Origin: Styela clava
Lineage: Eukaryota
Length of the DNA stretch: 64,000 nucleotides
Direction: 5' to 3'
Assembly: GCF_964204865.1 (NCBI RefSeq)
Contig: NC_135261.1
Span: forward strand, 10,602,001 to 10,666,000
In this document: positions 257 to 31,890 of the stretch, piece after piece
How positions within the stretch are numbered: position 1 is the first letter of the stretch
How the letters are laid out: each line of letters begins with the position of its first letter
Program-made: the position numbers and the translations under genes
Notes under the pieces: generated by a model
Databases searched by the model: none
Told to the model about the DNA's origin: nothing
The model's input: only the letters and a program-made list of their open reading frames with translations

Positions 257-1102
257 TAAGTAATGATAATGCTGATATTGAGCTTTATTTCGGATACCTA
301 ATAAAAAACTATCATTTCTACTTAGTTGACTGTGGTTGACGATTTTATGCAAACAGATGTAACAGAATGTTCCTATAAATATTTTTTTTTCGATGGTCAA
401 GGGATTTTTTACATAACTTTTAGGTTAGCGCCTTGAATACCACTTTCGTTTCTTTGTTCAGTACTTATTTGCGGTAGGCTGGGACTGGTAAACTTGCTCG
501 AAATTAGTTTGGATAATCGAATACATTTTGTATTTGTGGATTGGTATTCATTGCACACTATCGTACTCGTCAACTTACCTTATTACTCGAATAACGTGAT
601 TGGGCCCTATTTACTTACGGTAAACGACAGCAAACTGCGTTTAAATGTCTTCCAATTAGCTATACAAACGTCCACAACATCTCAATTATTAATCATTAAC
701 AGAACAGCATTGTTTCACGGATTTCACTGGTTGATAGAACAGTAAAGTATAGTTGATAGAAAGTGAATCAGCTTCGTCGAGTATGAATGGACCAGTCATA
801 CCGTGCGATTCATACTGAAATAGTGGGTTAAATTGACAAAGTATAAGTATATACATAAAGATCCGGTCAGTTATAGATTCAATACGATCGAATTGCAGAT
901 AGAGGTTTTATACAATTTAGATATAATTTGAGGTAGTTGATGTTTTCAGTGCATAAAAACTAGGGCAATGAATGAGAAGTATGTGTTTGAGTATATTTAA
1001 AAGTGAATATGGTTTGGTGGATATTTCAGTATTTAAACTGTATTTTTTTCATTTAATTATTAGATATTGAATAAGTAGGCTATAATAAGAATAAGACGAA
1101 AT

Positions 1103-4100: not shown

Positions 4101-6734
4101 TTAATGTAAGAATGCTTGTAGTGCTGTATGTTTATGTACGCGTTTATTGAATCAAGAAATCAAGCCACATGGTCGCAAACTAATTACTAGAAAGCCCTTT
4201 GAATGGGACGTCCTGCCTGCACGTCGTTAGACGACAACCAAACCTAAATTTAGTATAGCAGTCAATATAATGTACATTATTTAGAAAAATTTCCGTATAA
4301 CTGGAGCGCTATGTGAACTAACATTCCATGGTAAGATCTGTAATGAGGAATGAAACTGAAAAACATTGTATATAGGCAATGAGGGAGATGTCTTGGGTAG
4401 AATGCGCAGTTGCAATTCCAAAATATCAAAAAAACAGGCTCATTATTTCGTTGAAAATCAATCGTTGTTACAGAAAGCATGCTACAAAAGATGTTAAAAT
4501 TGATACACGAAATAACTAGTAACCGACCATAGCGAATTTTGTTCCTACCCAATGCAAGATACAACCACTTCTACTATCCATATAAAATCTTCATGGGTTT
4601 TCTGCAGGAATGCAGATCCATTGGATCTTGTGAACAGGGAAGTTCCAGTGGTGATCCGAAGTTTGATTGCCGGTGATATAATGGGAATGAGCGAACCGTA
4701 TCGACCAGTCATTGATGGAGTTGAATTCACTGATCAACCAATGTCTTTATATCGGGATGGTAAATGGAATTCGTACAAAAGCATGATTATGGGCGTAAAT
4801 ACGCAGGAATTAGACGACATACCGTACTTTGTTCCTGATCCTGTTCCTACTGGAAAAACACTCTTCACGGTACCGTTTTTTCCGTTATTGTCCCCTTACA
4901 TTAAATAGATTATATGTGAACCAATTTGTTTTTGTAGCAACATACCTATTATTTTTTATTATAGACAACGTAAATTTAGACAAAATATATACCTAAAAAA
5001 TTTCTAGGTAAATATCATAAAATACATAAGTTTTCATTTCTTGTGATATTGTATTTTACCCGATCTTCGGAGGGAGTGAAAAGTTTTTTCTCCCCATCTA
5101 CAGACTCCTCACATTGTTTTTCAAGTACCGTCTAACTGATTTATTTACCTAGTAAAATCAATGACGGTTTTATTATGTATGCTTGCTCAAATTAAAAATT
5201 GATAGTCGGTCGAACAAGTCTGGATACAGGGGACGCAAGGCACCCCTGACGCTGGTTTAGGACATATATATATGAATATATCAATATTTGTACATATTCT
5301 TTTGAAAGAGGTGTTTAAAAATGCTTGTTGTATTGCACGAGACTTGTGAGTACTGTAAATCCTTAATGGCAAACATATTACTAGAAGAATGATTTCAAAA
5401 TCACATATTTTCAGCCACCACAAAATGAATAACAACTAATTTTGATTTTCAAAACTATAGCCGCGTTGTTTTGACAGATTGTTAACTATTACATTCTTGG
5501 ACCCGGAGATACTGACGCTGTTGTCAAGAAATACGAAGAAGCCTTTCCACCCGAAGGAGATGATTATGCACCTACATTTGGCAAGGAAATGAGCCATTTA
5601 TATTTTATCTGTCCAAGCCGTGCAATGGCAAGGTAAATTTGCATGTACGTGGTGCAATTGAAAAAAAAACCTAAGTACCCGAAATATATAGATTTTAGAT
5701 TCACTTCATATGTAACAATAATTGATATTTGATATATCATTTATTGCATTTTTGCAGATTTGCAGCGTTCACAGCGAAAGGTGACTCAAAAGTTTATTTT
5801 TATGCCAATGAACATCCAATACTAGATGGAAATTGCAAAGCAAAAAATAACGGAAGCGAGGAGGGATGCTACTTAGCTTCGCATGGAGATGAAATGCGTT
5901 TTGTTTTCAGATCAACGTAAGTCACTTGTCAAATATCATATTAATTAAAAGGATATATTATGTTATTAGTTCATTAAATGGTTTATTTTTACTACTTATT
6001 AACCAGTAACCTAGACTGAAACAAGCAAAATAATTTCAGAGGAAACCCTACAGACGATGATCAATCTGTTGAAAACCAATTTAGTACTTACTGGGGTAGC
6101 TTTGCTCGTATTGGAGAGCCTTCTAATGGGTTAGAAAACTCTCTTGGAGATTTTCCTGACTGGCCACAGTATTCGTCACCATCAATGGCAAAGTGGAAGT
6201 ATACTCGAAACAATTTTCAGGCGATGATTCATGCTTTTGATAAAGGTGAACTTAGGATGATTAATTTGCCAATAATTAAATTATGAATTGGAATACATAT
6301 TTAAAACTGCACGTGTTTGCAATCGTAGAGGTAGAAATCCGTTCATGTTGTAGTTTACAGGTAGCAAGAGTTATAGCTTTCATATCCTAAAAGCGTTTAA
6401 ATCTTCTAAACTAAACCATTTCATGATTTTTTTACACGAAGTAACAACAAACCATGACTGGGAAAGTCTGCGAATCAAAGCTCCGGAGGGTAAAATTGAG
6501 ACAGGATACGAACAGGATATATGTGACTTCTGGGACAGTATAGGATTCTATATGGATCCAATACCGTTACCGACAACAACAGCTACCGTAGTTACTGAAG
6601 ATGACGCAGGCCGAACGGATCCACCGATTTTCACAACGAGTAATGCAAGATCAGACTCTCAACATTCATTTATTTTTATTTTTTCCTGCCTGCTTCCAAT
6701 TTTATGGTTGAACTTGTATGTCCAGGAAGAGTAA
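1103..6734 (+). CDS. Type-B carboxylesterase (carboxyl/cholinesterase alpha/beta-hydrolase family), secreted, probably GPI-anchored; 11 exons, 687 aa
   Basis: Manual GT-AG model with consistent phases: 1103-1292, 1556-1682, 1759-1882, 1999-2203, 3173-3306, 3897-4105, 4608-4869, 5478-5632, 5758-5916, 6040-6245, 6442-6734 (2064 nt). Motifs: signal peptide, [71 protein letters not shown] (Ser), GVNTQE (Glu), SHGDE (His), YWGSFAR, Thr-rich stalk, hydrophobic C-terminus. Confidence 0.92.
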
Positions 6735-7868: not shown

Positions 7869-10532
7869 TTATATACATCTGACATATCTGAAGCATCCGT
7901 CATACTTGACAATGCGGTAGGATTTGTACGTGCTAAAAATAGGATTATGTTAAACAGGAAAAAATCTGATTCAATTCAATTACAAAACTAACTAAGACTT
8001 ACCAGAATTGCTTGTAAGCAAAGCAATAAGAAGAAGACGTGGGCAACACGCAGCCATAATTATAGTTGATCTTAAGTTCTCCAAGTTGGACACAGTATGT
8101 ACATTTTAATCCACAAGCATAATGCTCCTTCAGATCACTGAGATGTTTCCCCCAGTCTTGTTCAATCTTGGTCACTATGTCGGTGTGTTCTTTCTTCGTT
8201 TTCTCTTCGTAGGCGTTGTACAATTTTTGAGCTTCGTTGCCGAGGGGTTTGCCCATATAAAATTCAAGCAGTTTCAAATACTGTTCCGTTCTGAGTTGGG
8301 CAATCTAAACATTTTTGCAAGAATTATATAAATATATATACATATTTTAAACACAATTTCACACACACACACTCAACCTTTTCCAATCTTTCTGTAATGC
8401 ATTTCAGTCTTCTTTCAAACCGTTCCGATAAGCACTTTACGTAGCTTCCGATCTTTGTCTTTCTGGTAGATAGGCATGATGTATATTGTGCAACATATTT
8501 GGCAATTCGCTCATTGAGCCTTTGCTCGTGGCAACCAATCATGTCAGTGTATGCCCTGGAAGCGCGAGAAAGGCGCTCCCCAAGCTTTTTTTCATACTCT
8601 GCAATCACTTTTTTCTTTTGTTCGTCCAATGATTTCTGATATTCTTCTAGGGAAGTCAAGTTATCTGCTGTGATGCAATTGTTTCTGGAAATATAAAGAG
8701 CAACTGAGCCAAAAGTCATCTTATGATATACTTATTCATCGTGAAACTTACTGTACTAAGTAATTTGCTTTATAATACGTTATTAAACATTTGTGTCTCT
8801 CATCAACAATCTTTTTGAAAGACTCCAATGCCTTCTGATTAGTTATTTTTGCTTGCGCATACCAATCATCATATGTTTTCTTCATGGATTCAATTATTGT
8901 CTTAGCTTTATTATCAAGGTCTTCTTTGAATTTTTGTTCGATGATATTAACTTCATCTTAAGTGTAATAAAAACATTAAATTCAGTGAAACATAAAAACA
9001 ATTGAGCATAAGTTTAAGGACTTGCACTAACCGGTTTCACATTTTTTCAGCTCCTTGTATTTGATTGTCCTGTATTGGAATTTGTAGGTCAAGAAACGGA
9101 AGCAACTTCTTTGGGTGGTAATTTTGTACGTCCACCATTTCCCGATACTTCGACTATAAAGAAAAAACCAAGAGTAGAATTATATTGATATATACTATTT
9201 ACCTGCCATTTATTTATAATTACCAATTGGTGTAAAATTGACTTCTGCCAAAACAGAGAGTTCCGCCGTATGCGCACTGATAAGCGCATGCGTAGCTTTT
9301 TACAAGTTCTCCGATAGCTGCAGTTAGCTTCGCGGTGTATTCGTCCAACTGTGTTTGATATGATTGAGTTTCTTTAGTTTTGAAAGCCTGCAAAACTTCA
9401 TTAACGTCTGCTCCGTTCTAATCCTCAGAACCTAAATGTAAAGTTCCATTATGAATAAAAGTATGTGCAAAATTCGAAAGAATAGAAAAAACTCACAGTG
9501 GGCTCTGTATATGAGTTTTTGGAACACTTCAGATCTCTGTTTCACGATGGCTTCCATGACACATTTATATTTTGTCTCGTACTCTGTCACGCGCTTTTCG
9601 AGAACTTTTTTGTATTCTTCTATTTTAGCTAAACGAGTGTTGAAGCATGTAACAGACCTGAAATAAGAAAGGTTCGAATTTTTTGTTCTCTTGTAAACGA
9701 TCTTTTGAACTTACAGTAACCAACCTCTCCACAAGTTTTTTGTGATATTCCTGCACACAAGCGAATCTTTTCTGCATGTCCTCGTTATAATTTTTTTTTG
9801 CCTCTCCCAACAATGAATCTAGTTTTGTATTATATTTTTCAATAGCCTTCTTGTTGGTCTCCTTCATTTCTTCTGACTCTTCCTGCAATCCCGTAATTCT
9901 AAAAATTCACGATGTTAGTAATTTGAGTAAGAAAAGAATACGTAAGAAAGAATTGTAAGAAGAAATACAAACTTCAAATACTGCTTTGTATATTCCTCGA
10001 TAGCGTCTTCGTGCTTTGTCTTTGCCTCGGTATTTTGATTTGATGCAGTTTCAACCCAATCATCATATTTTTGTTGCATATCAAGATATATTTTATCGGC
10101 CACTTCTTTCAATTGTTTTTTAACTTTAGTTTCAAAAACAGCGACCGTCATCTCTATAATACAAAAATTCATGCCTAAAAATGTGTGTTTCTCAAATTAT
10201 TCAGCAAAACTTATCAAGATACAATTCAGAATTACCTTCGAATCCATCCTCTGTGCATTTCTCTCCTGGATAGCTCTTCAGAACATTAGAGTAATATTTC
10301 GTTGTGAACCAAGCAGGACAGTAGTAGCTTCGGAAACTGTAGCATCCGTAATTGATTCGGTAAAATTGTCCGACATTGTAAATAACATATCCGCAATGAC
10401 TCGGTTGGTATAGAGCGGCATTGGCAACCTGTAAACATTATCATTTAGGCAAAATTGATAAAAAGAAACGAAGGTCAATATTTATCAAATACTTACGGCC
10501 AAACAGCCTAGAAGTAACAATAAAATCTTCAT
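7869..10532 (-). pseudogene. Copy 1 of the secreted helical Tyr/Cys-rich protein gene; premature stop in exon 6
   Basis: Exons on the minus strand: 10532-10497, 10428-10236, 10153-9973, 9898-9725, 9657-9497, 9431-9224, 9153-9032, 8956-8752, 8684-8378, 8304-8003, 7932-7869 (1953 nt, phases consistent). The codon at 9420-9418 is TAG where all other copies have TGG. Confidence 0.8.
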
Positions 10533-10589
10533 GATCGTCTTTATTCAGGTTGTTGAACAACGACTTGTCGAATCCCTGTTGTGCGCTTG

Positions 10590-10597: not shown

Positions 10598-11064
10598 GGA
10601 TTTCTTCCCTCTCTTCAAAATCCAAGTACCAGCTCCGTTAGGTTTTGATGTTACTTTAGTGAGCGCTTGTCTCGACCACAATGATTGAAATTGTCGAAGC
10701 GCAACAAATGTTTACCTCGAATCGCTATGCTGTAGTTATAACAGAAAGTTTATTTCATTTAAATCTTCTATCAATGTGCATTTAGTAAAAATGTAATTGT
10801 TAGTTAGTCTTTTTATTGTGAAGTACATTATTTTTCAACTAATAAGATACCACCTCGACATAGCTATTCACTTTATCAGTACGCATTGTTTATATAAATA
10901 TAACTTCAGGGTTGAAGATAGTTAGTCAATAGCTATTACATCCAATTGAACAACATTACTAAAAAAAAATAGAAGTTTTTCAACAACACTTTATTTTTAT
11001 TATTCACTCTTTGGTATACGCATACAATTGTTTTAACAGCAAAATGTACGACTTTTGAATCATA

Positions 11065-12081: not shown

Positions 12082-12328
12082 AAAAAATGTCATTGTTTAG
12101 ATAATAGATGCTCAAAAATTGTATGCGAAACAATGTTTGTGATTGCACCCTGGAAGAAGTGGATAATTGAGAATCGAAGGTCAGCCATCATCAGAATTTG
12201 TTAGAACTCGTCAGTTGTCAAATATCATATTAATTAAAAGGATATATCATGATATTAGTTCATGAAATGGTTTATTTTTACTGCCTAATAACCCGTAACC
12301 AAGACTGAAACAAGCAAATTAATTTCAG

Positions 12329-13591
12329 TGGAGACCCTAAAGCCGATGATCAATCTGTTGGGGTAGCTTTGCTCGTACTGGAGAGCCTTCTAATGGGTTA
12401 GAAAACTCTCTTGGAGATTTTCCTGACTGGTAACAGTATTCGTCACCATCAATGACGAAGCGGAAGTATCCTCGAAACAATTTTCAGGAGATGATTCATG
12501 ATTTTGATTAAGGTGAACTTAGGATGATTAATTTGCCAATAATTAAATTATGAATTGAAATACATATTTATAACTGAACGTATTTGCAATCGTAGAGGTA
12601 GAAATTAATAACATACATATATTCGATTTAGCAAAAAAATAAATATGACCAACATGTCCTTATAATATCCTGGGCATCATTTTTTTTTATCGTCACTTTT
12701 CAATTCCCCAAGTTTTACGTTAACTTAAAATAACCAAATCGGTCTGACTTTAGCACATTGTACAGTTTTACTATCAACTGCCGAGCAGGATAATGGTGTT
12801 CAGCACAACACCATCGTCGGCAATATACTGTGTGAAGGCATGCATCTTTCAAAAATCCCATATTTTATTTCACCAAAGACCAAAATTTGATGGAAAATCC
12901 AATTTTTAAAAAATTAAGTTAAAATTTAAATTAATCTAAATTAAGAAATGAAGACCTAAAATTGAACATTTCATATGACATTGAATTATTTTGCACAAAT
13001 CCTGGAATAACATAATATACATATGTACGATTCATAACATGCATTAAGTGGCAAAACTGTTCTAATCATACAATATTAAATAGCTGATCCCACCTTTGGG
13101 GGTAGCCCACAGAATTTCTTTATTATTTCTCCTTTTTTAAGGGCTGATCCAAAGATGTCTAACTTGATTATCCGTTCATTTTGTAGTTTACAGGTGGCAA
13201 GAGTTATAGCTTGCATATTTTAAAATCGTTTAAATCTTCTAAACCATTTCATGATTTTTTTACACGAAGTAACAACAAACCATGACTGGGAAAGTCTGCG
13301 AATCAAAGCTCCGGAAGGGTGAAATTGAGGGAAGGGTACGAGCAGGATATATGTGACTTGTGGGAAGGTATAGGATTCTGTATGGATTCAATACTGTTAC
13401 CGACAACAACAGATACCGTAGTTGATGTAGAACGGATCCACCGATTCACCGAACGGATTCGGACAGGCCGAACGGATTCACCGATTTTCACAACGAGTAA
13501 TGCAAGATCAGACTCTCAACATTCATTTATTTTTATTTTTTCCTGCCTGCTTTCACTTTTATGGTTGAACTTGAATGTCCAGGAAGAATAA
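12329..13591 (+). pseudogene. Decayed duplicate of esterase exons 10-11 (U2)
   Basis: Homologous to 6040-6734. It has a 22-nt deletion (gaaaaccaatttagtacttact), CCA>TAA, a +1 frameshift near the start of the last exon, a local duplication of gaacggat(c/t)caccgatt, and no upstream exons. Confidence 0.9.
12606..13170. mobile_element. About 565-bp insertion (MITE-like, degenerate ends) in the duplicated esterase intron 10, present in U2-U7
   Basis: U1 reads gtagaaATccgttc; U2 reads gtagaaATtaataac...acttgattATccgttc. The two ends are weakly inverted-similar (taataacatacatatattcgatttagc vs taatcaagttagacatctttggatcagc). Confidence 0.5.
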
Positions 13592-14433
13592 CCTATTATA
13601 TTGATAACTGATAATAATACGTCTTTTGGCTTAAATATATTATTTAATTACCTCATTAATTAATTACCTTTTCTTTAATGTACTTTATTTCAGCTATCTG
13701 AGAATCACTCTACAATACATGAACTAACAACCTCTATTGACTTGAATAAAATACACGCAGTCAATACATCTTGCTATATGAAATCCTATTTCATAAATAT
13801 ATATACCAAATAGGCTATGATGGATGCTTACCTGCCCTTTCACCCCAATTAATTCATTTATATATTTTACCATATTTCCATGCATATTTTGAGGTTGTTT
13901 TTTCGAGTTGCGCCTAAAAGTGGTTTGCGTGTTTAAAACTATAATTTCACATGACATTTAACGGTATTAATTCCGAATGTCAACCCAGGTAGATCCAAAT
14001 TTTAACTTCGTTCCATGACTCCAATATTAGGAAATCGTTTGGGTTACTACTGTTTGATGAATAAAGTTGAATAAAATCCAGAAAAACACATTTAGTGTTA
14101 CAACAACGTACAATGTTTTTGAAATTTGTTCCGGAGAATACAAGCAAACGAACAGTAACCCCAACACCTGTTTTGCATAGTCGTTCCCGAAGTTGGCGAT
14201 TAATCATCAGTGGCTTTAAAAAACTATAATGACGTCATATTGGATATAACGCATTGAGCCAAATAAAAAAATAACGTTGTACTTAAGTTTTCAATTTGTA
14301 AACTGAATTTATTAAGATCGGATGCTCTTGATTCTTCTGATTATATTCTCCAAGTTTTTGTTACTCTAAGTTTAGGTAATGTTTCCTAATTATCAATAAA
14401 ATACCAGTCTTTCGAAACAGGAATGTACTAGAG

Positions 14434-15281
14434 CAGGCGTCAGCCTACGGCCCGCGGGCCAGATCCTGTCCGCGGAGTAAAATAATCCAGCACGCGATTC
14501 TTTACTGAATTATAGAAATCGGCTGTTTTGATGATTATATTCTTTACGTAACAGAATTTATTTTAAGTCACGTGTAGACTAATTTATACTATAACCTAAC
14601 AAGTAAATAAGTAGGCTACTCGTTTATTAATTATAATTAGACAAATGGCAACAAACCGCAGAATAGTTTATGCTAAGTGCAAAGGGGTCAATGGCGCAGA
14701 AAATATTTAAATGAATTTTATTGAGATGAAGAAATAAATTTATATTCCTTTTTAAGAAATGTATCTTTGCTTGATTTTTATAAAAAAGTAACTTCTTGAA
14801 AGAAAACCTTACCCCAATTTGAGTGACAAATCATGCGAATAACTTTCTATCGATGTTTGGAAGTACATATGTACGCGAACAATTATTTCAGAAAACGAAC
14901 ATTACAAAGAACAAGCTGAGAATTCGGATTAGTGATGCCCATTTATAAAATGTTTTTATCTTGGCTTCATTCAGTGTCCCATTCAGAAAACGTTTCCCAT
15001 TCAGTGACGTTGAAAACGTATTAAGCGGGTTGCAACAAAAAGTGTCACATTAAATGTCATTTGTAATTTTTCTTCTCAAGTAAAACGATTAAGTTGAGTT
15101 CACGAGTTGTCGCAGTCTTCGCACGCTGCTTAAATCCTAAAATGTCAACATCTGATCTGATCAAAAAATTGCGATTAATCGGCCATACCTTCGGTTTTTA
15201 ACTTTCTAAAAATATGTGACACCCAACAAGATTCGCAACCTTTAGTTTTGGTCCGCGAGCGACAAAAGGTTGCCGACATCA
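14434..15281 (+). mobile_element. Degenerate non-autonomous hAT (Charlie/SPIN/Buster-like) element; also at about 22498-23345, 33565-34412, 44632-45479, 52709-53556, 60774-61621
   Basis: Left end cagg(g/c)gtcagcctacggcccgcgggccagatcc; right end ttgg(c/t)ccgcgagcgacaaaaggttgccgac. An internal relic translates LSMFGSTYVREQLFQKTNITKNKLRIRISDAHL*NV, resembling the hAT C-terminal dimerisation region. No clean TSD. Confidence 0.75.
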
Positions 15282-15941
15282 TAAAGTTTTCTTATATGGT
15301 GCACAAATATCACCAGTATGTTATTAAGATATACTAATTGTGGAATTTGGCAATAATATGATTGTCCTGAGACATTCTTTTTAATATAATTCCATTTCTC
15401 ATTCAACATTTGTCATTTCTGAACCTAACAATTTGACCTGTATTTCCCATTTTGATTTCTTGTGCATCGCTCAGAGTTTCATCTCAAGTTATCAATTTTT
15501 AGAAGTACAATTTCAATGAGAAGTTTGAAAGTATCGGTTGTGCTATAATAGGGATTTGGGAAATGAATTTTCGGCACAACAGCTTTTTCTACTATTTGCA
15601 CCCTGGCGTTACCGGGTCGCAAATAAAGGAGGTTACAAGGAGTATGAAGCATGCATGTTGAAAAATAAAGCGCCTTGTGCTTTGCGAAGTATGTAACTGA
15701 TGTTATTGCGTGATACAATTTTACATGTAAATGTATAGAAATAGTGTTCAATCCACACGTACTTTCAAATCCCGGTCACCAAAGATGCCTCTAACCACAT
15801 TATAACACTTCTATTTGCATTTGCTTAGAATTTATTGTCAATATCAGCAGATGGCAAAGGCAATTGGCATAAATTCATCAGCCTAATCTAAAACTAAGAT
15901 ATTTCCATGGTCGTTTGTCGTTCGGTTGATGTCGGCGGTGT

Positions 15942-18589
15942 TTATATACATCTGACATATCTGAAGCATCCGTCATACTTGACAATGCGGTAGGATTTGT
16001 ACGTGCTGAAATAGGATTATGTTAAACAGGAAAAACTCTGATTCAATTCAATTACAAAACTAACTAAGACTTACCAGAATTGCTTGTAAGCAAAGCAATA
16101 AGAAGAAGACGTGGGCAACACGCATCGATAATTATAGGTGATCTTAAGTTCTCGAAGTTGCACACAGTATGTACATTTGAATCCACAAGCATAATGCTCC
16201 TTCAGATCACTGAGATGTTTCCCCCAGTCTTGTTCAATCTTGGTCACTATGTCGGTGTGTTCTTTCTTCGTTTTCTCTTCGTAGGCGTTGTACAATTTTT
16301 GAGCTTCGTTGCCGAGTGGTTTGCCCATATAAAATTCAAGCAGTTTCAAATACTGTTCCGTTCTGAGTTGGGCAATCTAAACATTTTTGCAAGAATTATA
16401 TAAATATAAATACATATTTTAAACAAAATGTCACGCTGTCAACCTTTTCCAATCTCTCTGTAATGCATTTCAGTCTTCTTTCAAACCGTTCCGATAAGCA
16501 CTTTACATAGCTTTCGATCTTTGTCTTTCTGGTAGATAGGCATGTTGCATATTGTGCAACATATTTGGCAATTCGCTCATTGAGCCTTTGCTCGTGGCAA
16601 CCAATCATGTCAGTGTATGCCTTGGAAGCGCGAGAAAGGCGCTCCCCAAGCTTTTTTTCATACTCTGCAATCGCTTTTTTCTTTTGTTCGTCCAATGATT
16701 TCTGATATTCTTCTAGGGAAGTCAAGTTATCTGCTGTGATGCAATTGTTTCTGGAAATATAAAGAGCAACTGAGCCAAATGACATCTTATGATATACTTA
16801 TTCACCGTGACACTTACTGTACTAAGTAATTTGCTTTATAATACGTTATCAAACATTTGTGTCTCTCATCAACAATCTTTTTGAAAGACTCCAATGCCTT
16901 CTGATTAGTTATTTTTGCTTGCGCATACCAATCATCATATGTTTTCTTCATGGATTCAATTATTGTCTTAGCTTTATTATCAAGGTCTTCTTTGAATTTT
17001 TGTTCGGTGATATTAACTTCATCTTAAGTGTAATAAAAACATTAAATTCAGTGAAACATAAAGACAATTGAGCAAACGTTTTAGGACTTGCACTAACCGG
17101 TTACACATTTTTTCAGCTCCTTGTATTTGATTGTCCTGTATTGAAATTTGTAGGTCAAGAAACGGAAGCAACTTCTTTGGGTAGTAATTTTGTACGTCCA
17201 CCATTTCCCGATACTTCGACTATAAAGAAAAAACCAAGAGTAGAATTATATTGATATATACTATTTACCTGCCATTTATTTATAATTACCAATTGGTGTA
17301 AAATTGACTTCTGCCAAAACAGAGAGTTCCGCCGTATGCGCACTGATAAGCGCATGCGTAGCTTTTTACAAGTTCTCCGATAGCTGCAGTTAGCTTCGCG
17401 GTGTATTCGTCCAACTGTGTTTGATATGATAAAGTTTCTTTAGTTTTGAAAGCCTCCAAAACTGCATTAACGTCTGCTCCGTTCCAATCCTCAGAACCTA
17501 AATGTAAAGTTCCATTATGAATAAAAGTATGTGCAAAATTCGAAAGAATAGAAAAAACTTACAATGGGCTCTGTATATGAGTTTTTGGAACACTTCAGAT
17601 CTTTGTTTTACGATGGCTTCCATGACACATTTATATTTTGTCTCGTACTCTGTCACGCGCTTTTCGAGAGCTTTTTTGTATTCTTCTATTTTAGCTAAAC
17701 GAGTGGTGAAGCATGTAACAGACCTGAAATAAGAAAGGTTCGAATTTTAGTTCTCTTGTAAACGGACTTTTAAACTTACAGTAACTCACCTCTCGACAAG
17801 TTTTTCGTGATATTCCAGCACACAAGCGTATCTTTTCTTCATGTCATCGTTATAATTTTTTTTTGCTTCTTCCAACAATGAATCTAGTTTTGTATTATAA
17901 TTTTCAATAGCCTTCTTGTTGGTCTCCTTCATTTCTTCTGACTCTTCCTGCAATCCCGTAATTCTAAAAATTCACGATGTTAGTAATTTGAGTAGGAAAA
18001 GAATACGTAAGAAAGAATTGTAAGAAGAAATACAAACTTCAAATACTGCTTTGTATATTCCTCGATAGCGTCTTCGTGCTTTGTCTTTGCCTCGGTATTT
18101 TGATTTGTTGCAGTTTCAACCCAATCTTCATATTTTTGTTGCATATCAAGATATATTTTATCGGCCACTTCTTTCAATTGTTTTTTAACTTCAGTTTCAA
18201 AAACGGCGACCGTCATCTCTATAATACAAAAAATCATGCCTCAAAATGTGTGTTTCTCAAATTATTCAGAAAAACATACAATTCAGAATTACCTTCGAAT
18301 CCATCCTCTGTGCATTTCTCTCCTGGATAGCTCTTCAGAACATTAGAGTAATATTTCGTTGTGAACCAAGCAGGACAGTAGTAGCTTCGGAAACTGTAGC
18401 ATCCGTAATTGATTCGGTAAAATTGTCCGACATTGTAAGTAACATATCCACAATGACTCGGTTGGTATAGAGCGGCATTGGCAACCTGTAAACAATATAA
18501 TTTAGGCAAAATTGATAAAAAGAAACGAAGGGCACTATTTATCAAATACTTACGGCCAAACAGCCTAGAAGTAACAATAAAATCTTCAT
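15942..18589 (-). CDS. Uncharacterised secreted 650-aa helical/coiled-coil, Tyr/Cys-rich protein, copy 2 (11 exons)
   Basis: Begins MKILLLLLGCLA|VANAALYQPSHCGY (signal peptide) and ends CTYKSYRIVKYDGCFRYVRCI*. Same GT-AG junctions as copy 1, TGG at the exon-6 position, no stop or frameshift seen. Confidence 0.85.
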
Positions 18590-20384
18590 GATCGTCTTTA
18601 TTCAGGTTGTTGAACAACGACTTGTCGAATCCCTGTTGTGCGCTTGTATATATGGGATTTTCTTCCCTCTCTTCAAAATCCAAGTACCAGCTCCTTTATG
18701 TTTTAATGTTACTTTAGTGAGCTCTTATCTCGACCACAATGATTGAAATTGTCAGAAGCGCAACAAATGTTTACCTCGAATCGCTATGCCGTAGTTATAA
18801 CAGAAAGTTCAGTTTATTTCATTTAAATCTTCCATCATTGTGCATTTAGTAAAAAGGTAATTGTTAATTAATCTTTTTATTGTGAAGTACATTATTTTTC
18901 AACTAACAAGATACCACTTCGACATAGCTATTCACTTCATAAGTACGCATTGTTTATATAAATATAACTTCAGGGTTGAAGATAGTTAGTCAATAGCTAT
19001 TACATCCAATTGAACAGCATTACTAAAAAAATAGAAGTTTTTCAACAACACTTTATTTTTATTATTCACTCTTTGGTATACGCATACAATTGTTTTAACA
19101 GCAAAATGTACGACTTTTGAATCATAGATTTATTGACGTTCTCATGCTTGACAGCGTCAATCAATCAGAAAAAATTCCTGATCATATAAGCATTAACAAT
19201 GTATTTGGAATAGCCATAATGAATGGACACTGTAATATGAGTTATTCGGACATGGATTGTGCACACGAAGAATATTTCACTCGTTGTCAGTGGTATTGGA
19301 GTTGGGAATTATCTTTTCACCTCCAAAATGATAAATCGGAAATTGGTGTAGAATACTCCAATTAATTTAAAAATGAATTTTATGTTCTGTTTAATTGCTG
19401 GCATTTAAACATATATATATCTAACGCCAACGACAACCTCTAAATGAAAAGATAACGATTGTATTAATATCGGGATCGACTCAAAACAGGATTATACAGA
19501 ACTCGACGACGTTCGTCGACAACACCAATAAAGTCGAAATATCCAGTTTCATAACGTTTCGTCATAGGTCTCAAAGTCGAAAATTTTATTTCCGAATTCG
19601 GAATTCTCAAAACATTCGAATCCTACTTCAATATGATAAAGTTGGAAAGTACTAAATTTTTTTAGTGTATTTCCATCATATTCAAAGCAAAAACACAAAA
19701 TGTTGAGTTATAAATTATATTTTTAATCAAGAGCTGTCATATCCGTATAAATAATATCACAAATAAACCATTTGTTTTTGACGAAGCACTTATATCCTTA
19801 TGTTAGAACAAGCAGTATATTTTGCATATTCGTATGCAAGTAAAACGTTGATGTTTCGATAGATTGATTGACGTTGTCATTCTCCGAGAATACTGAATCC
19901 CAAAAGAATATTTCAACTACTTACCTAGCATCTAGTGGACAGTCTCATATCGGGCGCCTTTAAATATATGGACTTCAAGATATTTTTTTGTAATTCGAAA
20001 CAAATTTCCAAACATCATCAATATTTCCCGGATTCTCCTCATGCATAAATATTTCTATTTCTGAAAATATTCAATATGCTAATGTGCAGCTCGACTTTTG
20101 ACGCGCGTCAAATATTGTTTGACAACGTCAATCAAACAAAACATGTCATTGTTTAGATAATAGATGCTCAAAAATTGTAAGCAAAACAATGTTTGTGATT
20201 ACACCCTGTAGGAAGTGGATAATTGAGAACCGAAGATCAGCCATCATCAGAATTTGTTAAAACTCGTCAGTTGTCAAATATCATATTAATTAAAAGGCTA
20301 TATCATGATATTAGTTCATGAAATGGTTTATTTTTACTGCCTAATAACCGGTAACCAAGACTGAAACAAGCAAATTAAATTCAG

Positions 20385-21639
20385 AGGAAACCCTACAGAC
20401 GACGATCAATCTGTTGGGGTAGCTTTGCTCGTACTGGAGAGCCTGCTGATGGGTTAGAAAACTCTCTTGGAGATTTTCCTGACTGGTAACAGTATTCGTC
20501 ACCATCTATGACAAAGCGGTATCTCGAAAGTATCCTCGAAACAATTTTCAGGGGATGAATCAGAATTTTGATTAAGGTGAACTTATGATGAATAATTTGC
20601 CAATAATTAAATCATGAATTGAAATACATATTTATAACTGAACGTATTTGCAATCGTAGAGGTAGAAATTAATAACATACATATATTCAATTTAGAAAAA
20701 AAAAGGTTATGACCAACATGTCCTCATAATATCCTGAGCATCATTTTTTTTATCGTCACTTTTCAATTCCCCAAGTTTTACGTTAACTTAAAATAACCAA
20801 ATCGGTCTGACTTTAGCACATTGTACAGTTATACTATCAACTGCCGAGCAGGATAATGGTGTTCAGCACAACACCATCGTCGGCAATATATTGTGTGCAG
20901 GCATGCATCTTTCAAAAATCCCATATTTTATTTCACCAAAGACCAAAATTTGATGAAAAATCCGATTTGTTAAAAAATCATCTAAATTAAGAAATGAAGA
21001 CCTAAAATTGAACATTTCATATGGCATTGAATTATTTCGCACAAATCCTGGAATAACATAATATAAATATGTACGATTCATAACATGCATTAAGTGGGAA
21101 AACTGTTCTAATCATAAAATATTAAATAGCTGATCCCACCTTTGGGGGTAGCCCACAGAATTTCTTTATTATTTCTCCTTTTTTTTTTGGGCTGATCCAA
21201 AGATGTCTATCTTGATTATCCGTTCATGTTGTAGTTTACAGGTGGCAAGAGTTATAGCTTGCATATTCTAAAATCGTTTAAATCTTCTGAACCATTTCAT
21301 GATTTTTTTACACGAAGTAACAACAAACCATGACTGGGAAAGTCTGCGAATCAAAGCTCCGGAAGGGTGAAATTGAGGGAAGGGTACGAGCAGGATATAT
21401 GTGACTTGTGGGAAGGTATAGGATTCTGTATGGATTCAATACTGTTACCGACAACAACAGATACCGTAGTTGATGTAGAACGGATCCACCGATTCACCGA
21501 ACGGATTCGGACAGGCCGAACGGATTCACCGATTTTCACAACGAGTAATGCAAGATCAGACTCTCAACATTCATTTATTTTTATTTTTTCCTGCCTGCTT
21601 TCACTTTTATGGTTGAACTTGAATGTCCAGGAAGAATAA
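20385..21639 (+). pseudogene. Decayed esterase exons 10-11 (U3)
   Basis: Same lesions as U2. Confidence 0.9.
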
Positions 21640-24005: not shown

Positions 24006-26654
24006 TTATATACATCTGACATATCTGAAGCATCCGTCATACTTGACAATGCGGTAGGATTTGTACGTGCTGAAATAGGATTATGTTAAACAGGAAAAAC
24101 TCTGATTCAATTCAATTACAAAACTAACTAAGACTTACCAGAATTGCTTGTAAGCAAAGCAATAAGAAGAAGACGTGGGCAACACGCATCGATAATTATA
24201 GGTGATCTTAAGTTCTCGAAGTTGCACACAGTATGTACATTTGAATCCACAAGCATAATGCTCCTTCAGATCACTGAGATGTTTCCCCCAGTCTTGTTCA
24301 ATCTTGGTCACTATGTCGGTGTGTTCTTTCTTCGTTTTCTCTTCGTAGGCGTTGTACAATTTTTGAGCTTCGTTGCCGAGTGGTTTGCCCATATAAAATT
24401 CAAGCAGTTTCAAATACTGTTCCGTTCTGAGTTGGGCAATCTAAACATTTTTGCAAGAATTATATAAATATAAATACATATTTTAAACAAAATGTCACGC
24501 TGTCAACCTTTTCCAATCTCTCTGTAATGCATTTCAGTCTTCTTTCAAACCGTTCCGATAAGCACTTTACGTAGCTTTCGATCTTTGTCTTTCTGGTAGA
24601 TAGGCATGTTGCATATTGTGCAACATATTTGCCAATTCGCTCATTGAGCCTTTGCTCGTGGCAACCAATCATGTCAGTGTATGCCTTGGAAGTGCGAGAA
24701 AGGCGCTCCCCAAGCTTTTTTTCATACTCTGCAATCGCTTTTTTCTTTTGTTCGTCCAATGATTTCTGATATTCTTCTAGGGAAGTCAAGTTATCTGCTG
24801 TGATGCAATTGTTTCTGGAAATATAAAGAGCAACTGAGCCAAATGTCATCTTATGATATACTTATTCACCGTGACACTTACTGTACTAAGTAATTTGCTT
24901 TATAATACGTTATCAAACATTTGTGTCTCTCATCAACAATCTTTTTGAAAGACTCCAATGCCTTCTGATTAGTTATTTTTGCTTGCGCATACCAATCATC
25001 ATATGTTTTCTTCATGGATTCAATTATTGTCTTAGCTTTATTATCAAGGTCTTCTTTGAATTTTTGTTCGGTGATATTAACTTCATCTTAAGTGTAATAA
25101 AAACATTAAATTCAGTGAAACATAAAGACAATTGAGCAAACGTTTTAGGACTTGCACTAACCGGTTACACATTTTTTCAGCTCCTTGTATTTGATTGTCC
25201 TGTATTGAAATTTGTAGGTCAAGAAACGGAAGCAACTTCTTTGGGTAGTAATTTTGTACGTCCACCATTTCCCGATACTTCGACTATAAAGAAAAAACCA
25301 AGAGTAGAATTATATTGATATATACTATTTACCTGCCATTTATTTATAATTACCAATTGGTGTAAAATTGACTTCTGCCAAAACAGAGAGTTCCGCCGTA
25401 TGCGCACTGATAAGCGCATGCGTAGCTTTTTACAAGTTCTCCGATAGCTGCAGTTAGCTTCGCGGTGTATTCGTCCAACTGTGTTTGATATGATAAAGTT
25501 TCTTTAGTTTTGAAAGCCGCCAAAACTGCATTAACGTCTGCTCCGTTCCAACCCTCAGAACCTAAATGTAAAGTTCCATTATGAATAAAAGTATGTGCAA
25601 AATTCGAAAGAATAGAAAAAACTTACAATGGGCTCTGTATATGAGTTTTTGGAACACTTCAGATCTTTGTTTTACGATGGCTTCCATGACACATTTATAT
25701 TTTGTCTCATACTCTGTCACGCGCTTTTCGAGAGCTTTTTTGTATTCTTCTATTTTAGCTAAACGAGTGTTGAAGCATGTAACAGACCTGAAATAAGAAA
25801 GGTTCGAATTTTTTGTTCTCTTGTAAACGAACTTTTGAACTTACAGTAACACACCTCTCGACAAGTTTTTTGTGATATTCCTGCACACAAGCGAATCTTT
25901 TCTGCATGTCATCGTTATAATTTTTTTTTGCTTCTTCCAACAATGAATCTAGTTTTGTATTATAATTTTCAATAGCCTTCTTGTTGGTCTCCTTCATTTC
26001 TTCTGACTCTTCCTGCAATCCCGTAATTCTAAAAATTCACGATGTTAGTAATTTGAGTAAGAAAAGAATACGTAAGAAAGAATTGTAAGAAGAAATACAA
26101 ACTTCAAATACTGCTTTGCATATTCCTCGATAGCGTCTTCGTGCTTTGTCTTTGCCTCGGTATTTTGATTTGTTGCAGTTTCAACCCAATCCCCCTTTTT
26201 TTGTTGCATATCAAGATATATTTTATCGGCCACTTCTTTCAATTGTTTTTTAACTTCAGTTTCAAAAACGGCCACCGTCATCTCTATAATACAAAAAATC
26301 ATGCCTCAAAATGTGTGTTTCTCAAATTATTCAGAAAAACATACAATTCAGAATTACCTTCGAATCCATCCTCTGTGCATTTCTCTCCTGGATAGCTCTT
26401 CAGAACATTAGAGTAATATTTCGTTGTGAACCAAGCAGGACAGTAGTAGCTTCGGAAACTGTAGCATCCGTAATTGATTCGGTAAAATTGTCCGACATTG
26501 TAAGTAACATATCCACAATGACTCGGTTGGTATAGAGCGGCATTGGCAACCTGTAAACATTATAATTTAGGCAAAATTGATAAAAAGAAACGAAGGGCAC
26601 TATTTATCAAATACTTACGGCCAAACAGCCTAGAAGTAACAATAAAATCTTCAT
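24006..26654 (-). CDS. Secreted 650-aa protein, copy 3
   Basis: Same exon structure; ATG 26654, TAA 24008-24006; no disabling change seen. Confidence 0.85.
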
Positions 26655-28890
26655 GATCGTCTTTATTCAGGTTGTTGAACAACGACTTGTCGAATCCCTG
26701 TTGTGCGCTTGTATATATGGGATTTCTTCCCTCTCTTCAAAATCCAAGTACCAGCTCCTTTATGTTTTAATGTTACTTTAGTGAGCTCTTATCTCGACCA
26801 CAATGATTGAAATTGTCAGAAGCGCAACAAATGTTTACCTCGAATCGCTATGCCGTAGTTATAACAGAAAGTTCAGTTTATTTCATTTAAATCTTCCATC
26901 ATTGTGCATTTAGTAAAAAGGTAATTGTTAATTAATCTTTTTATTGTGAAGTACATTATTTTTCAACTAATAAGATACCACTTCGACATAGCTATTCACT
27001 TCATCAGTACGCATTGTTTATATAAATATAACTTCAGGGTTGAAGATAGTTAGTCAATAGCTATTACATCCAATTGAACAGCATTACTTAAAAAAATAGA
27101 AGTTTTTCAACAACACTTTATTTTTATTATTCACTCTTTGGTATACGCATACAATTGTTTTAACAGCAAAATGTACGACTTTTGAATCATAGATTGATTG
27201 ACGTTCTCATGCTTGACAGCGTCAATCAATCAGAAAAATTTCCTGATCATATAAGCAATAACAATGTATCTGGAATAGCCATAATGAATGAACACTGTAA
27301 TATGAGTTATTCGGACATGGATTGTGCACACGAAGAATATTTCACTCGTTGTCAGTGGTATTGGAGTTGGGAATTATCTTTTCACCTCCAAAATGATAAA
27401 TCGGAAATTGGTGTAGAATACTCCAATTAATTTAAAAATGAATTTTATGTTCTGTTTAATTGCTGGCATTTAAACATGTATATATCTAACGCCAACGACA
27501 ACCTCTAAATGAAAAGATAACGATTGTATTAATATCGGGATCGACACAAAACAGGATTATACAGAACTCGACGACGTTCGTCGACAACACCAATAAAGTC
27601 GAAATATCCAGTTTCATAACGTTTCGTCATAGGTCTCAAAGTCGAAAATTTTATTTCCGAATTCGGAATTCTCAAAACATTTGAATCCTACTTCAATATG
27701 ATAAAGTTGGAAAGTACTAAATATTTTTAGTGTATTTCCATCATATTCAAAGCAAAAACACAAAATGTTGAGTTATAAATTATATTTTTAATCAAGAGCT
27801 GCCATATCCGTATAAATAATATCACAAATAAACCATTTGTTTTTGACGAAGCACTTATATCCTTATGTTAGAACAAGCAGTTTATTTTGAATATTCGTAT
27901 GCAAGTAAAACGTTGATGTTTCGATAGATTGATTGACGTTGTCATTCTCCGAGAATACTGAATCCCAAAAGAATATTTCAACTACTTACCTAGCATCTAG
28001 TGGACAGTTTCATATCGGGCGCTTTTAAATATATGGACTTCAAGATATTTTTTTGTAATTCGAGACAAATTTCCAAACATCATCAATATTTCCCGGATTC
28101 TCCTCATGCATAAATATTTCTATTTCTGAAAATATTCAATATGCTAATGTGCAGCTCGACTTTTGACGCGCGTCAAATATTGTTTGACAACGTCAATCAA
28201 ACTAAACATGTCATTGTTTAGATAATAGATGCTCAAAAATTGTAAGCAAAACAATGTTTGTGATTACACCCTGTAGGAAGTGGATAATTGAGAACCGAAG
28301 ATCAGCCATCATCAGAATTTGTTAAAACTCGTCAGTTGTCAAATATCATATTAATTAAAAGGCTATATCATGATATTAGTTCATGAAATGGTTTATTTTT
28401 ACTGCCTGATAACCGGTAACCAAGACTGAAACAAGCAAATTAAATTCAGAGGAAACCCTACAGACGACGATCAATCTGTTGGGGTAGCTTTGCTCGTACT
28501 GGAGAGCCTGCTGATGGGTTAGAAAACTCTCTTGGAGATTTTCCTGACTGGTAACAGTATTCGTCACCATCAATGACAAAGCGGTATCTCGAAAGTATCC
28601 TCGAAACAATTTTCAGGGGATGAATCATGATTTTGATCAAGGTGAACTTATGATGAATAATTTGCCAATAATTAAATCATGAATTGAAATACATATTTAT
28701 AACTGAACGTATTTGCAATCGTAGAGGTAGAAATTAATAACATACATATATTCAATTTAGAAAAAAAAAGGTTATGACCAACATGTCCTCATAATATCCT
28801 GAGCATCATTTTTTTTATCGTCACTTTTCAATTCCCCAAGTTTTACGTTAACTTAAAATAACCAAATCGGTCTGACTTTAGCACATTGTG

Positions 28891-31890
28891 GGGGAAAGGC
28901 AGGTTAGTTGATGCTGTAGTTTAGATGATACAGCGCTTCTCACGGCCGTGCAATGCACTTTAAGAAACTAATGCGCCACCTGGTGTTTGGCTAGAATATG
29001 ATCTTCCTTTCTGTTAGTCGTCTGACGATGTTGGTTGCAGCACGTGTAAAATTTTCGAAAAAAATCAATTTTTGAGATCTGGAGTGAAAACGTCAAATCA
29101 AGGTAAATTGATTATTTTTTCAGGCATTATAAATGAGCGATGCAAGCGAGTATTTCCTTGCAGTAGTGTATGATATCGCTTACATAACAGCCTACATGTT
29201 TCTGGGTACTGATTTGATTTCTTCCCACTACGGGCCTTTTTTTCAAAATGGCCACAGGTTGACTAGTTGATACAATCGTGGTTCCATTAGTTGATACGTG
29301 TATCGACTAACCCTGTTATTTATTCCATGTATTTTTTTAGCATATTTTTCAGCAAATATATTTTCAGACTTTCTTTTAACCGGCTTTTATGGTTTGCAGC
29401 ATTGTCAATATTTTTACGCTGCCAATATTGTTTTCAACGTATTTTAGGTGATGCCTCAGTTCTATAGAAGAAAAACAAACAGAGCCATAAGAACTCCCCC
29501 GGATGTGATGTCGAGGGCGGCTGACGATGTTGTTCGCGGGCGATCATTGAGGAGTGTAGCTGAAGCATTTGGCATCGATAAAATGACTTTGTCTCGTTTT
29601 ATAGCCAAGCGCAAAAATAATCCTAACGCAATTACAGGTTACGCTGCTGTTGCTCATGCACATTATGTTATTCCTCAGCAAATGGAAGAAGATCTGGGAA
29701 ATCATGTCAAACGATTGGCCGACATGTTTTTTGGACTCTCTCTTGAAACAGTGTTGTAAACTAGCTTATGAATTTACATTTCAAAACAAGCTGTATATGC
29801 CATTGTCTTGGAAAATCAACAAAAAAGCGGGAAAAGCTTGGTGGCTAGGGTTCAAAAAACGACAAAATCTTTCCATACGGACTCCAGAGGCAACTTCACT
29901 CGGAAGGGCGACTGCATTTAATCGTCACACGGTTGGTGAATTTTTCGACAACTTAGCACAGGTCATGGATGTGGACGATTTTCACCCTGAAGATATTTAC
30001 AATCTCGATGAAACCGGGTGCACCACTGTTCAAACCCCATCTGATATTGTTACAGCCAAGGGTAAAAAACAAGTGGGTGCAGCTACGTCTGCTGAGCGTG
30101 GTGAACTGGTTACGGTAGTCTACACCATCTGCGCCTCTGGTAATGTGCTTCCACCTATGTTTATATTTCCGCGCGTAAACTTCCACAACCACTTTATCAT
30201 TGAAGGGCCACCGGGCTGCATTGGACAAGCAACAAAGTCTGGCTGGATTAATGAAGAACTTTTTCTCGTTTATCTAGAACATCTGGTGCGCCAGACTCGT
30301 TGTACTCCCGAAAGAAAAATTCTTTTGATTTTGGATAACCACGAGTCTCATATTTCTTTACGTGCTGTTGAGATGGCAAGATCCAATGGAGTAGTTATGC
30401 TTACTTTACCACCTCACACATCTCATCGATTGCAACCGCTTGATAAAACGGTGTATGGTCCTTTCAAAGCCAGTTATAACAGAGCGATGGAGAGTTGGCT
30501 ACGTAGTCATGCTGGGAAAACTGTTACAATATATGATGTTCCTGGCATTGTAAAAGAGGCTCAAATGTCAGCAATGACATCGAGGAATATTCTATCTGGA
30601 TTTCAAAGCACTGGGATATACCCTTTCAATCGCGATATTTTCACTGATGCAGATTTTGCAGCTGCAACTTTGACGGACCGAGAAGTCGTTGGCGTTGATC
30701 GTAATGAACCAGGACAGTCCTCAAAATGCACGGATCCACTGACCCCAGGCTGTAGTACTGAAAATCGTTGCACTCCTAAACCGAGGGTTGATGAATCAGC
30801 GTTTCAGTTACAGAAAACGGGCAACCCAGATCCCGACTTATCAAATTCTTGCTCGTCGTACGTATCGCCAAGCGAGATCCAAAAAATCCCAAAAGCTCCA
30901 CAAAGAAAGACCAAGCGCTCCCGAAAAAAAGGAAAGACAAAGATTTTACCATCCACGCCTGTATTAAAAGAGATTTCCCTAGAGAATGAAAAAAGAAAGA
31001 AAAACAAGATATGCAGTTCGAGAAAAAAACTTTTCGCTACAAAAAATAGGAAAGTTCGCCCCCACAATACTAGCAATAGTTCAGAAGAGGAGTGTGCTGT
31101 TGTTAGATATGATGATACGACTGATGAAGATGAATTATCTGCAGAAGAAATTATGGAAGGTGATTACGTGGTTGTCAAAGTTGACGGGAGATCTAGAAAT
31201 GTACATTACATCGCTCGTATAGATTTGCTGGAAGATAATGAGTATGAGGGAGTTTTTCTAAAGAAAGTTTCTAGTCGAGTTTCTGTCGAAGGAGAGCACA
31301 CTGGTTTTGTATTTGTTCCAAATGAAGATGATGGGGCTTCATTCTCGCATGAGGACATAATATGCAGACTACCTCAGCCAACAATTCTTGCAGGATCAGC
31401 TCGGAGATGTGTTCGACTTAAATTTGATTGCGATTTGAGTAAATGGAATGTAAATTAGAGGTTGTCTACCACCATCCAGCAAACCATTTCGTTAAATGAG
31501 TTATTTGTTCTTTTTTATTTTTTTTGCCGCCGTTTCTGGTGAAACTTTCTCTCTCGTTCTTTTGAAACAAGTTATAAGTGATATTTGTGCCTCGTTCCAT
31601 TTCATTTTTGGAGTAATTGCCTGCTTTTAAAAACTTTATGCAGAGTGTATCAACAAAACTACCACTGCGCATCAAGTAACCTTACCAGGCAGGATATTTG
31701 ATACGTTTGACAAGAAAACTTTAGCGACTGTAAGCGCTAAGTTAGGAAATGACTGAGAGCCCCATTTTGTGGTCATATGTGAGGGACCTATAAATGAATA
31801 AATAGGACAAACCAGAACGGCGATTATTCGAACGGTATTTTTTATGGATCAGTAAAACTAAATTATGTATCAACTTACCTGCCTCTCCCC
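28891..31890 (+). mobile_element. pogo-superfamily (IS630-Tc1-mariner group, DD35D, Fot-like) DNA transposon, 3000 bp
   Basis: Left end ggggaaaggcaggttagttgatgc matches the reverse complement of the right end, ggggagaggcaggtaagttgatac, at 21/24 positions. Inserted at the TA of cacattgTAcagtt (empty in U2, U3, U7); right flank TA, left flank TG. Subterminal gttgatac/gtatcaac repeats near 29260-29310 and 31645-31705. Confidence 0.95.
29451..31458 (+). pseudogene. pogo DDE_1 transposase with a single +1 frameshift (about 668 aa if repaired)
   Basis: The N-terminal HTH region (SLRSVAEAFGIDKMTL...DMFFGLSLE) is in one frame and the continuation QCCKLAYEF...AGKAWWLGFKKR in the next, with an extra A at 29746-29748. 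Catalytic motifs YNLDETG, LILDNHESH, LQPLD (35 residues between D2 and D3). Probable 5'UTR intron 29103-29447. Confidence 0.9.

Follow-up and report, generated by a model that had tools for sequence, protein, structure and literature searches.

Tunicates and lancelets feed by means of the mucous net that the endostyle secretes, and this net determines which plankton they remove; which proteins it contains is a matter of dispute. Within the endostyle, zone 6 is the site of Ends1 expression, and HrEnds2 of Halocynthia is presumably a member of the same family. Two further groups of secreted helical proteins invite comparison: the exchangeable apolipoproteins (apoA-I, apoA-IV, apoE and apolipophorin III; Pfam family PF01442), which are marked by proline-punctuated 22-residue repeats, and the helical silk and egg-capsule proteins of bees, mantises and whelks, which are sets of heptad coiled-coil paralogs made in bulk. 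The accessible part of PMC7347631 names Ci-Ends1 of Ciona as an endostyle-specific gene and lists quantitative polymerase chain reaction (qPCR) primers for ‘Endostyle-specific gene 1, ENDS1, AB010895’, with a 210-bp amplicon; no function for the family was found in the papers searched. The analysis described here concerns a relative of Ci-Ends1 in Styela clava. The window (the whole stretch of DNA that was analysed) comprises 64,000 nucleotides of RefSeq assembly GCF_964204865.1 (contig NC_135261.1, positions 10,602,001 to 10,666,000), and the gene in question occupies positions 15942..18589 on its minus strand.

By sequence comparison, the window gene is assigned to the ascidian Ends1 family. 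A phmmer search of 1.84 billion representative sequences (E≤0.001) returned 25 matches, 20 of which were looked up: one Styela protein of a second paralog type (‘C17’, described below), two from Clavelina lepadiformis, two from Ciona savignyi, one from Ciona intestinalis and 14 from JGI/IMG, ENA, merc and Logan. No named relative from outside the ascidians was among these 20; the long relatives from the last four sources sit on contigs of approximately 2-2.7 kb, and our guess is that the 14 unassigned sequences are marine and come from pelagic tunicates. The connection to Ci-Ends1 itself is provided by the Ciona intestinalis match (P0027; LOC104265754, a partial protein of 279 residues). Both published primers translate to 7-residue peptides, each found exactly in P0027 at a spacing of 70 codons (210 nt), and P0027 is the only fetched protein that holds both. 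Because this protein is in turn a homologue of the window protein (30% identity over 217 columns; score 284 versus 50±8 for 30 shuffles; phmmer E 4.6e-16), the window gene falls within the Ends1 family. Homology over the full length rests on P0022 of C. savignyi, the sister of P0027 in a 19-row tree (built on a subset from which near-duplicates and most fragments had been dropped). In the same tree the Styela types form a single clade (99/99), apart from the Ciona and Clavelina paralogs, and the window gene is therefore a family member rather than a one-to-one orthologue of Ci-Ends1.

Two preliminary results were discarded along the way. The impression of an ‘orphan’ given by word-index homologue searches (which found only Styela proteins of the window’s own type and three fragments) was overturned by the HMMER family matches, and an initial test of the primer peptides on the Styela proteins (peak at residue 444, p 0.012-0.019) proved to be an echo in the second internal repeat, the true site lying in the first. 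In two of the relatives (P0028 and P0030) the common core is preceded by N-terminal low-complexity MGGKS repeats, a feature also of some structural proteins. An earlier note on this DNA, made from the sequence alone, had described an unrecognised protein whose novelty would be removed by a match to a well-characterised family. That description did not hold, since the homologue search returned a named family (although one without a Pfam model), and the kind of gene is thus not new; the accompanying statement that no catalytic or named domain is present agrees with the Pfam search, in which the window protein reached the cut-off of no family. What appears to be new, within the literature searched, is the amplification of the family in four arrays and the existence of a polycationic paralog: no description of either was found in literature titles, most subscription papers lying outside the search, and no paper naming LOC120330333 was found in the same searchable literature.

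The gene model was derived from a splice search and from transcript contigs. Its 11 coding exons (on the minus strand, 18589-18554, 18485-18293, 18218-18038, 17963-17790, 17723-17563, 17497-17290, 17219-17098, 17022-16818, 16750-16444, 16376-16075 and 16005-15942) are separated by ten GT-AG introns of 65-75 nt, and the resulting coding sequence (CDS) of 1953 nt encodes an intact protein of 650 residues, with 0 differences from the Styela clava RefSeq protein XP_077975069.1 (LOC144430813; P0005), there termed ‘uncharacterized’. Transcript contigs back all ten junctions: six appear in the displayed joints table of run X1, three are bridged by consecutive record coordinates (X1 and X3), and intron 1 is supported by a loose end in a contig of run X6 that reads exon 1. 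In run X15 the introns are covered and no joints are displayed. The runs carry coded labels and their type, marked ‘RNA?’, is a guess; they are taken to be RNA because their contigs are spliced and end in poly(A). The transcript check proposed by the earlier note thus yielded exactly the 11-exon, 1953-nt, 650-residue model it had put forward. A CDS of 1962 nt, which the splice search gave by itself with one donor 9 nt further on, was ruled out by contigs that set this donor at 16444.

Transcript contigs also delimit the ends of the gene. The 3' untranslated region (UTR; 15814..15941, minus strand) contains AATAAA and ends at a poly(A) site near 15814. Upstream of the start codon, 18590..18655 (minus strand) holds a short 5' UTR and a TATA-like element (TATATA at approximately 18652-18647), and this region is likely the main promoter because the depth of X6 contigs drops upstream of approximately 18611. 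One low-depth contig (X1) reads an alternative upstream non-coding exon (19925..20072, minus strand; its far end estimated from a 146-nt loose end), with a GTAAGT donor at 19924 and an acceptor before 18693, which suggests a second, weak promoter beside the TATA-like one at approximately 18650. In run X6, 11,331 contigs fall on the window gene, at a summed exon depth of approximately 1e5-9e5, as against a single contig of depth 20 in run X1; such depths, a poor measure of expression, offer a hint of strong, sample-restricted transcription.

The encoded protein has the features of a secreted molecule, as the earlier note had proposed: hydropathy peaks at 2.0 in a signal-peptide-like start that is conserved across homologues, and does not exceed 0.9 in any later segment. 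The remainder is a two-fold internal repeat (residues 68-339 align with 354-647; score 233 versus 56±10 for 200 shuffles), echoed by three pairs of introns (76/358 in phase 1, and 137/427 and 318/630 in phase 2). An AlphaFold model built with a 26-row alignment (pLDDT 81, pTM 0.46) places helices at 80-139, 146-248, 255-298, 365-428, 433-546 and 551-594, so that each repeat comprises three helices of about 60, 103-108 and 44 residues; the long helices measure 100-103 and 108 residues in 15 of the 15 long rows. Their hydrophobic period is 3.66 (11/3); in 11 of 11 sequences both long helices give values between 3.64 and 3.67, and the autocorrelation peaks at 11 and 22. The coiled coils suggested in the earlier note are not borne out in heptad form, the power in the long helices being 0.1 at a period of 3.5 versus 19.9 and 18.6 at 3.67. 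The comparison with the helical silks of bees, mantises and whelks is accordingly one of analogy, given this near-zero power at 3.5, and no sequence link to them was found.

Six cysteines (C199, C297, C301, C497, C593 and C597) are conserved in 95-100% of rows. The Tyr/Cys-rich termini that the earlier note had described are both present, but the description was incomplete, in that a third such segment lies in the mid-linker; the N-terminus, mid-linker and C-terminus are 23-26% aromatic (Tyr/Phe/Trp) and 6-13% Cys. Tyrosine makes up 8-9% of the protein, Ser and Thr together 12% and Pro less than 1%, while the helices of the window type contain 18% Lys+Arg and 18% Asp+Glu. The protein resembles Ci-vWFL1/2 and gel-forming mucins in being secreted and containing cysteines, and Ci-vWFL1/2 share the link to the endostyle in Ciona (accessible part of PMC8462739); it differs from them in its lack of a vWD or mucin domain by Pfam, its low Ser, Thr and Pro content and its mostly helical structure. 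Searches for a known fold, which the earlier note had recommended, gave no confident match: Foldseek found nothing for the window protein model at E≤0.001, VIA on the whole model displayed only generic helical bundles (best Z 9.7), and an ESM Atlas search with P0003 produced no usable match. The VIA match to the pore-forming protein ClyA (Z 8.1 over 201 residues, rmsd 7.2) is of the level that helical models give as background, and the pore-forming alternative raised in the earlier note gained no support. A single-sequence AlphaFold model (pLDDT 51, pTM 0.31) was poor and was kept out of the fold search.

Ci-Ends1 (AB010895, LOC104265754) and the C. savignyi proteins H2YML8 and H2YRI4 show full-length homology at 25-30% identity, and agree with the window protein in length class and signal peptide, in the pattern of their cysteines, in the lengths of their helices and in the 11/3 period. 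Styela differs from Ciona in its three paralog types, which form a clade of their own; they are amplified to approximately 40 copies, and one of them is polycationic.

With exon 10 as the query, 43 matches were found in the Styela clava genome, 42 of which lie in four arrays on three contigs (C16, C3 and C17). There are at least 14 copies in array A on C16 (part of which lies in the window), at least 11 in array B on the same contig (inverted relative to A and approximately 650 kb away), at least 7 on C3 and at least 10 on C17; the unit lengths are approximately 8, 10.7, 10.6 and 12.1 kb, and the flanks are largely unrelated. The seven or more tandem copies described in the earlier note are therefore present in the window itself, with a larger total in the genome. 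Seven gene copies, all on the minus strand, fall in the window, six of them complete and five of those six intact. Beyond 15942..18589 these are an edge copy at 7869..10532, the most diverged (44 nt differences) and interrupted by a stop at codon 253; intact copies at 24006..26654 (17 nt differences), 35073..37721 (14), 46140..48788 (12) and 54219..56867 (20); and a seventh at 62282..64000 that is cut by the window end and intact in the genome sequence (L012), after which the array continues to its 14 copies.

Exons were projected onto 41 gene-sized regions (14 in A, 11 in B, 7 on C3 and 9 on C17), all of which keep exon length and GT-AG sites, and 38 of which are free of internal stops. The C17 gene model has the same ten intron phases as the window gene, as does that of C3 once its first junction follows the contigs. 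Protein identities of 92% between A and B, 39% between A and C3, 35% between A and C17 and 32% between C3 and C17 define three paralog types. Within arrays the copies are very similar (pN 0.002-0.009, pS 0.004-0.023), and mean pN/pS is 0.36 in A, 0.64 in B, 0.53 in C3, 0.52 in C17 and 0.39 for A versus B, values which rest on few, non-independent differences. The three stop-bearing copies (the window copy at 10532, and L029 and L030 of array B) all lie at or beside an array end, and the edge of the C17 array holds two incomplete copies approximately 20 kb apart, one with exons 1-8 only (L048:2805-5717) and the other with exons 9-11 only (L008:2980-4093). The 43rd match, on C8 (G000:C8:16829301-16829558; L011:4305-4556), is weak (E 0.11), contains two stops and was left out of the counts; it corresponds to the C-terminal family motif (a 42-residue profile match) and is possibly an old fragment. 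When the Styela genome was searched with a distant relative as the query, no additional array came up.

The paralog types form a series of charge, with a mature net charge of +5 to +16 in array B, +16 to +24 in array A, +67 to +69 in C17 and +223 to +226 in C3, as compared with +38 to +58 in the measured proteins of Ciona savignyi and Clavelina. The C3 protein (636 residues, net charge +226) contains 148 Arg and 85 Lys (233 Lys+Arg, 37%) and only 7 Asp+Glu; of the 89 acidic columns of the A type, 51 hold Lys or Arg in C3, and the hydrophobic face is kept, 183 of 208 large hydrophobic positions remaining hydrophobic. Five RxK/RR sites are found in this type. It is a transcribed gene, since X6 contigs span all ten of its introns, one of them at an offset of 3 letters, and carry a poly(A) end. 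Runs X1, X10 and X12 contain no contigs on C3 exons, which is no proof of absence, and no National Center for Biotechnology Information (NCBI) protein for this paralog turned up in any search made. In one gene of the C3 array (L001:2977-6599), 90 of the 148 Arg codons are AGA.

Published expression data bear on the relatives. In the accessible part of PMC9953650, Supplement S3 pairs C17-type models with the Ciona genes KY.Chr12.60 and KY.Chr8.1208, and Table S1 gives KY.Chr12.60 a value of 1436 under ‘heart’ and no more than 0.13 in any of the ten remaining columns. The accessible part of PMC8462739 describes the vWFL gene KY.Chr1.1785 as specific to the endostyle; this gene peaks in the same ‘heart’ column, and because of this the tissue labels of Table S1 would seem to be shifted, the column in which KY.Chr12.60 peaks then representing the endostyle. 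If so, the list of Styela-specific endostyle genes in PMC9953650, to the extent that the source was available, would also be affected. The gene model 000008F.103 is a strong single-cell marker; it is not counted here as a family member, its sequence being unseen.

The reading that we favor, and to which we give about an even chance, is that the family constitutes a mass-produced endostyle secretion of rod-shaped helical proteins which help to build the mucous feeding net, the tissue of the window gene being judged through its relatives. In each repeat, the long helix would pair in antiparallel fashion with the two shorter ones (60+44 versus 103 residues, and 64+44 versus 108), and because the helix lengths add up in this manner and bring the conserved cysteines together, a hairpin closed in its middle is proposed. 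Such a hairpin would be a rod approximately 15-16 nm long (by arithmetic on the model, rather than from an inspected structure), in which C199/C297/C301 and C497/C593/C597 would meet near the middle and lock it by disulfides. The spare hydrophobic face could then pack hairpin on hairpin, within or between molecules, and the aromatic, Cys-rich segments might join one rod to the next, to give filaments or a gel. Having lost its acidic residues and kept its hydrophobic face, the +226 paralog is a candidate polyanion binder and may attach to anionic mucus glycans or to bacterial surfaces. The net is constantly secreted and swallowed (accessible parts of bioRxiv 2025.01.21.634085 and PMC6109156), and demand for its protein should therefore be high; each paralog would have gained its higher dosage by unequal crossing-over, and a demand for dosage would explain the four parallel arrays. 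The suggestion in the earlier note of a bulk extracellular material needed at high dosage fits the secreted product, the many intact copies and the deep contigs of one run. A bolder version, which we consider rather unlikely, is that the net is built throughout the tunicates on disulfide-locked 16-nm rods of 11/3 helices, and that Styela supplies three paralogs of graded charge, the +226 one condensing anionic glycans and gripping bacteria.

Several observations weigh against the favored role in the net. The accessible part of the same preprint (bioRxiv 2025.01.21.634085) reports very little protein in ascidian mucus, which contained 4.4% nitrogen and yielded no mucus-specific peptides, argues against special self-assembling mucus proteins, and finds that surface charge matters little for capture; its peptides were matched to UniProt sets for Ciona and Ascidiacea, a search in which proteins 25-35% identical to the database sequences could escape notice. 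The shift of tissue labels is our own deduction, KY.Chr12.60 was not found in the accessible supplements of PMC8462739, and its place as a relative derives from the published pairing, its own sequence being unseen. The Styela model paired with it reads only 5.5 in endostyle (accessible part of PMC9953650), which multi-mapping among copies may explain, and is a modest or weak marker in the available part of a spatial endostyle atlas (PMC10980280), the sequence of this model likewise being unseen. The source tissue of the deep run X6 is coded, and contig depth measures expression poorly; the overall arrangement of helices is unsure at a pTM of 0.46; and the RxK/RR sites could mean that the C3 protein is cleaved into peptides.

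Among other explanations for the same gene, a kinship of function with exchangeable apolipoproteins is unlikely. Open 11/3 amphipathic hairpins would coat lipid or another hydrophobic surface, as a carrier, a surfactant or a particle catcher of the pharynx, and would form no filaments. The period of 3.66, the autocorrelation at 11 and 22 and the secreted, long amphipathic helices are all apolipoprotein-like; PF01442 matches at E≤0.05 in 16 of 26 aligned members (best 1.6e-12), and a comparison of the family profile with solved structures puts apoA-I at the top (9e-7), with apoA-IV, apoE and apolipophorin III also listed. The PF01442 match may, however, stem from periodicity alone, and the window protein itself scores 19.7 bits, far below the cut-off of 90. 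It also lacks the proline-punctuated 22-mers of apolipoproteins (21 of 22 long-helix segments contain no proline and the other contains one), and departs from them in having numerous conserved cysteines, segments rich in aromatic residues and Cys, a strict three-helix length pattern and a gene of 11 coding exons, with no apolipoprotein among the displayed VIA rows and nothing in Foldseek at the threshold given above. The lipid-binding alternative of the earlier note draws some support from the 11/3 helices and the weak profile matches. A defence protein of the pharynx, in which the cationic helices, as intact proteins or as fragments released at basic sites, kill or agglutinate microbes trapped in mucus, is distinctly unlikely. 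The extreme composition of the C3 type (its charge, its five RxK/RR sites and its replaced acidic columns) is what one would expect of such a protein, and the accessible part of PMC10980280 describes zone 6 of the endostyle as an antimicrobial epithelium. Yet the window type, which is near neutral in its helices, is the commonest (25 of 41 copies), no transmembrane-like segment or distinctive match to a pore former was seen, and the homogeneous copies, with pN/pS below 1, are unlike diversifying immune families.

That the family provides some other bulk secretion in Styela (tunic, egg coat, storage protein or a Tyr-rich scaffold that binds iodine) rather than the net is very unlikely. The coded tissue of the deep run would permit it, as would the tyrosine content, a literal reading of ‘heart’ in the tissue table, and a separate Styela clade in which the role could have shifted. 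Against this stand the naming of Ci-Ends1 as endostyle-specific, the vWFL control that points to the endostyle column, and the lack of any Tg1, vWD, ZP or vitellogenin domain by Pfam in the window protein, which sets it apart from thyroglobulin-like precursors in particular; the Styela precursor of that kind is a different, 630-kDa Tg1 protein (accessible part of PMC12992692). Least likely of all is that the arrays say nothing of dosage, either because unstable tandem DNA produced them neutrally or because assembly inflated part of their number; the proposed function might still hold in that case. The copies are indeed very young by their pS, the units drag along gene fragments and a transposon, stops interrupt three of the 41 full copies, two C17 copies are incomplete, and the pN/pS values have the limits already given. 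The same family has nonetheless been amplified four times, in separate arrays that are spread over three contigs, differ in unit length and have largely unrelated flanks, and the window copies differ by 12-44 nt, one unit bearing an apparent excision footprint, which argues that they are real.

One tandem unit of array A (12761..20824, 8064 bp) contains the gene, its upstream region and fragments of a neighboring carboxylesterase gene. The units measure approximately 8.07 kb, or 11.07 kb with a transposon, and are 93-99.6% identical to each other. Apart from these fragments, no other intact gene was seen in them (open reading frames of at least 65 residues in 1-15900 and of at least 120 residues across the window; Rfam on 1-24000), as the earlier note had recognized in calling this the only intact host gene of the repeat. 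The flanking carboxylesterase gene (Pfam COesterase) lies at the left end of the array (1079..6734, plus strand), and its last two exons recur as diverged fragments in every unit (for example, at 12210-12605 and 13170-13760); its product has a signal-peptide-like start and a hydrophobic C-terminal tail resembling a GPI signal. A DNA transposon of 3001 bp with inverted ends and a DDE_1 transposase frame of 617 codons, which we take to be pogo-like, is inserted in one unit (28890..31890, plus strand). An identical copy (3001 of 3001 bases) occupies the same site of the next unit (39957..42957, plus strand), and likely arose by duplication along with its unit. A third unit shows TA-GG-TA at this site (near 51020-51026), resembling an excision footprint, and the transposon was therefore probably active recently; the shared site and the footprint would fit the copying of units by unequal crossing-over.

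For the biology of the feeding net, the locus supplies concrete candidates for net proteins, sequences for mass-spectrometry searches and Ciona homologues for knock-out. The C3 protein, a secreted helical chain of 636 residues with more than a third of them Lys or Arg, evolved from a near-neutral scaffold with its hydrophobic face retained, is an unusual material in its own right, and four parallel arrays of one family offer a clean case for testing selection on dosage. If the reading of charge-graded rods is true, the feeding net would be a chordate system of protein fibres with several components, tuned by charge.

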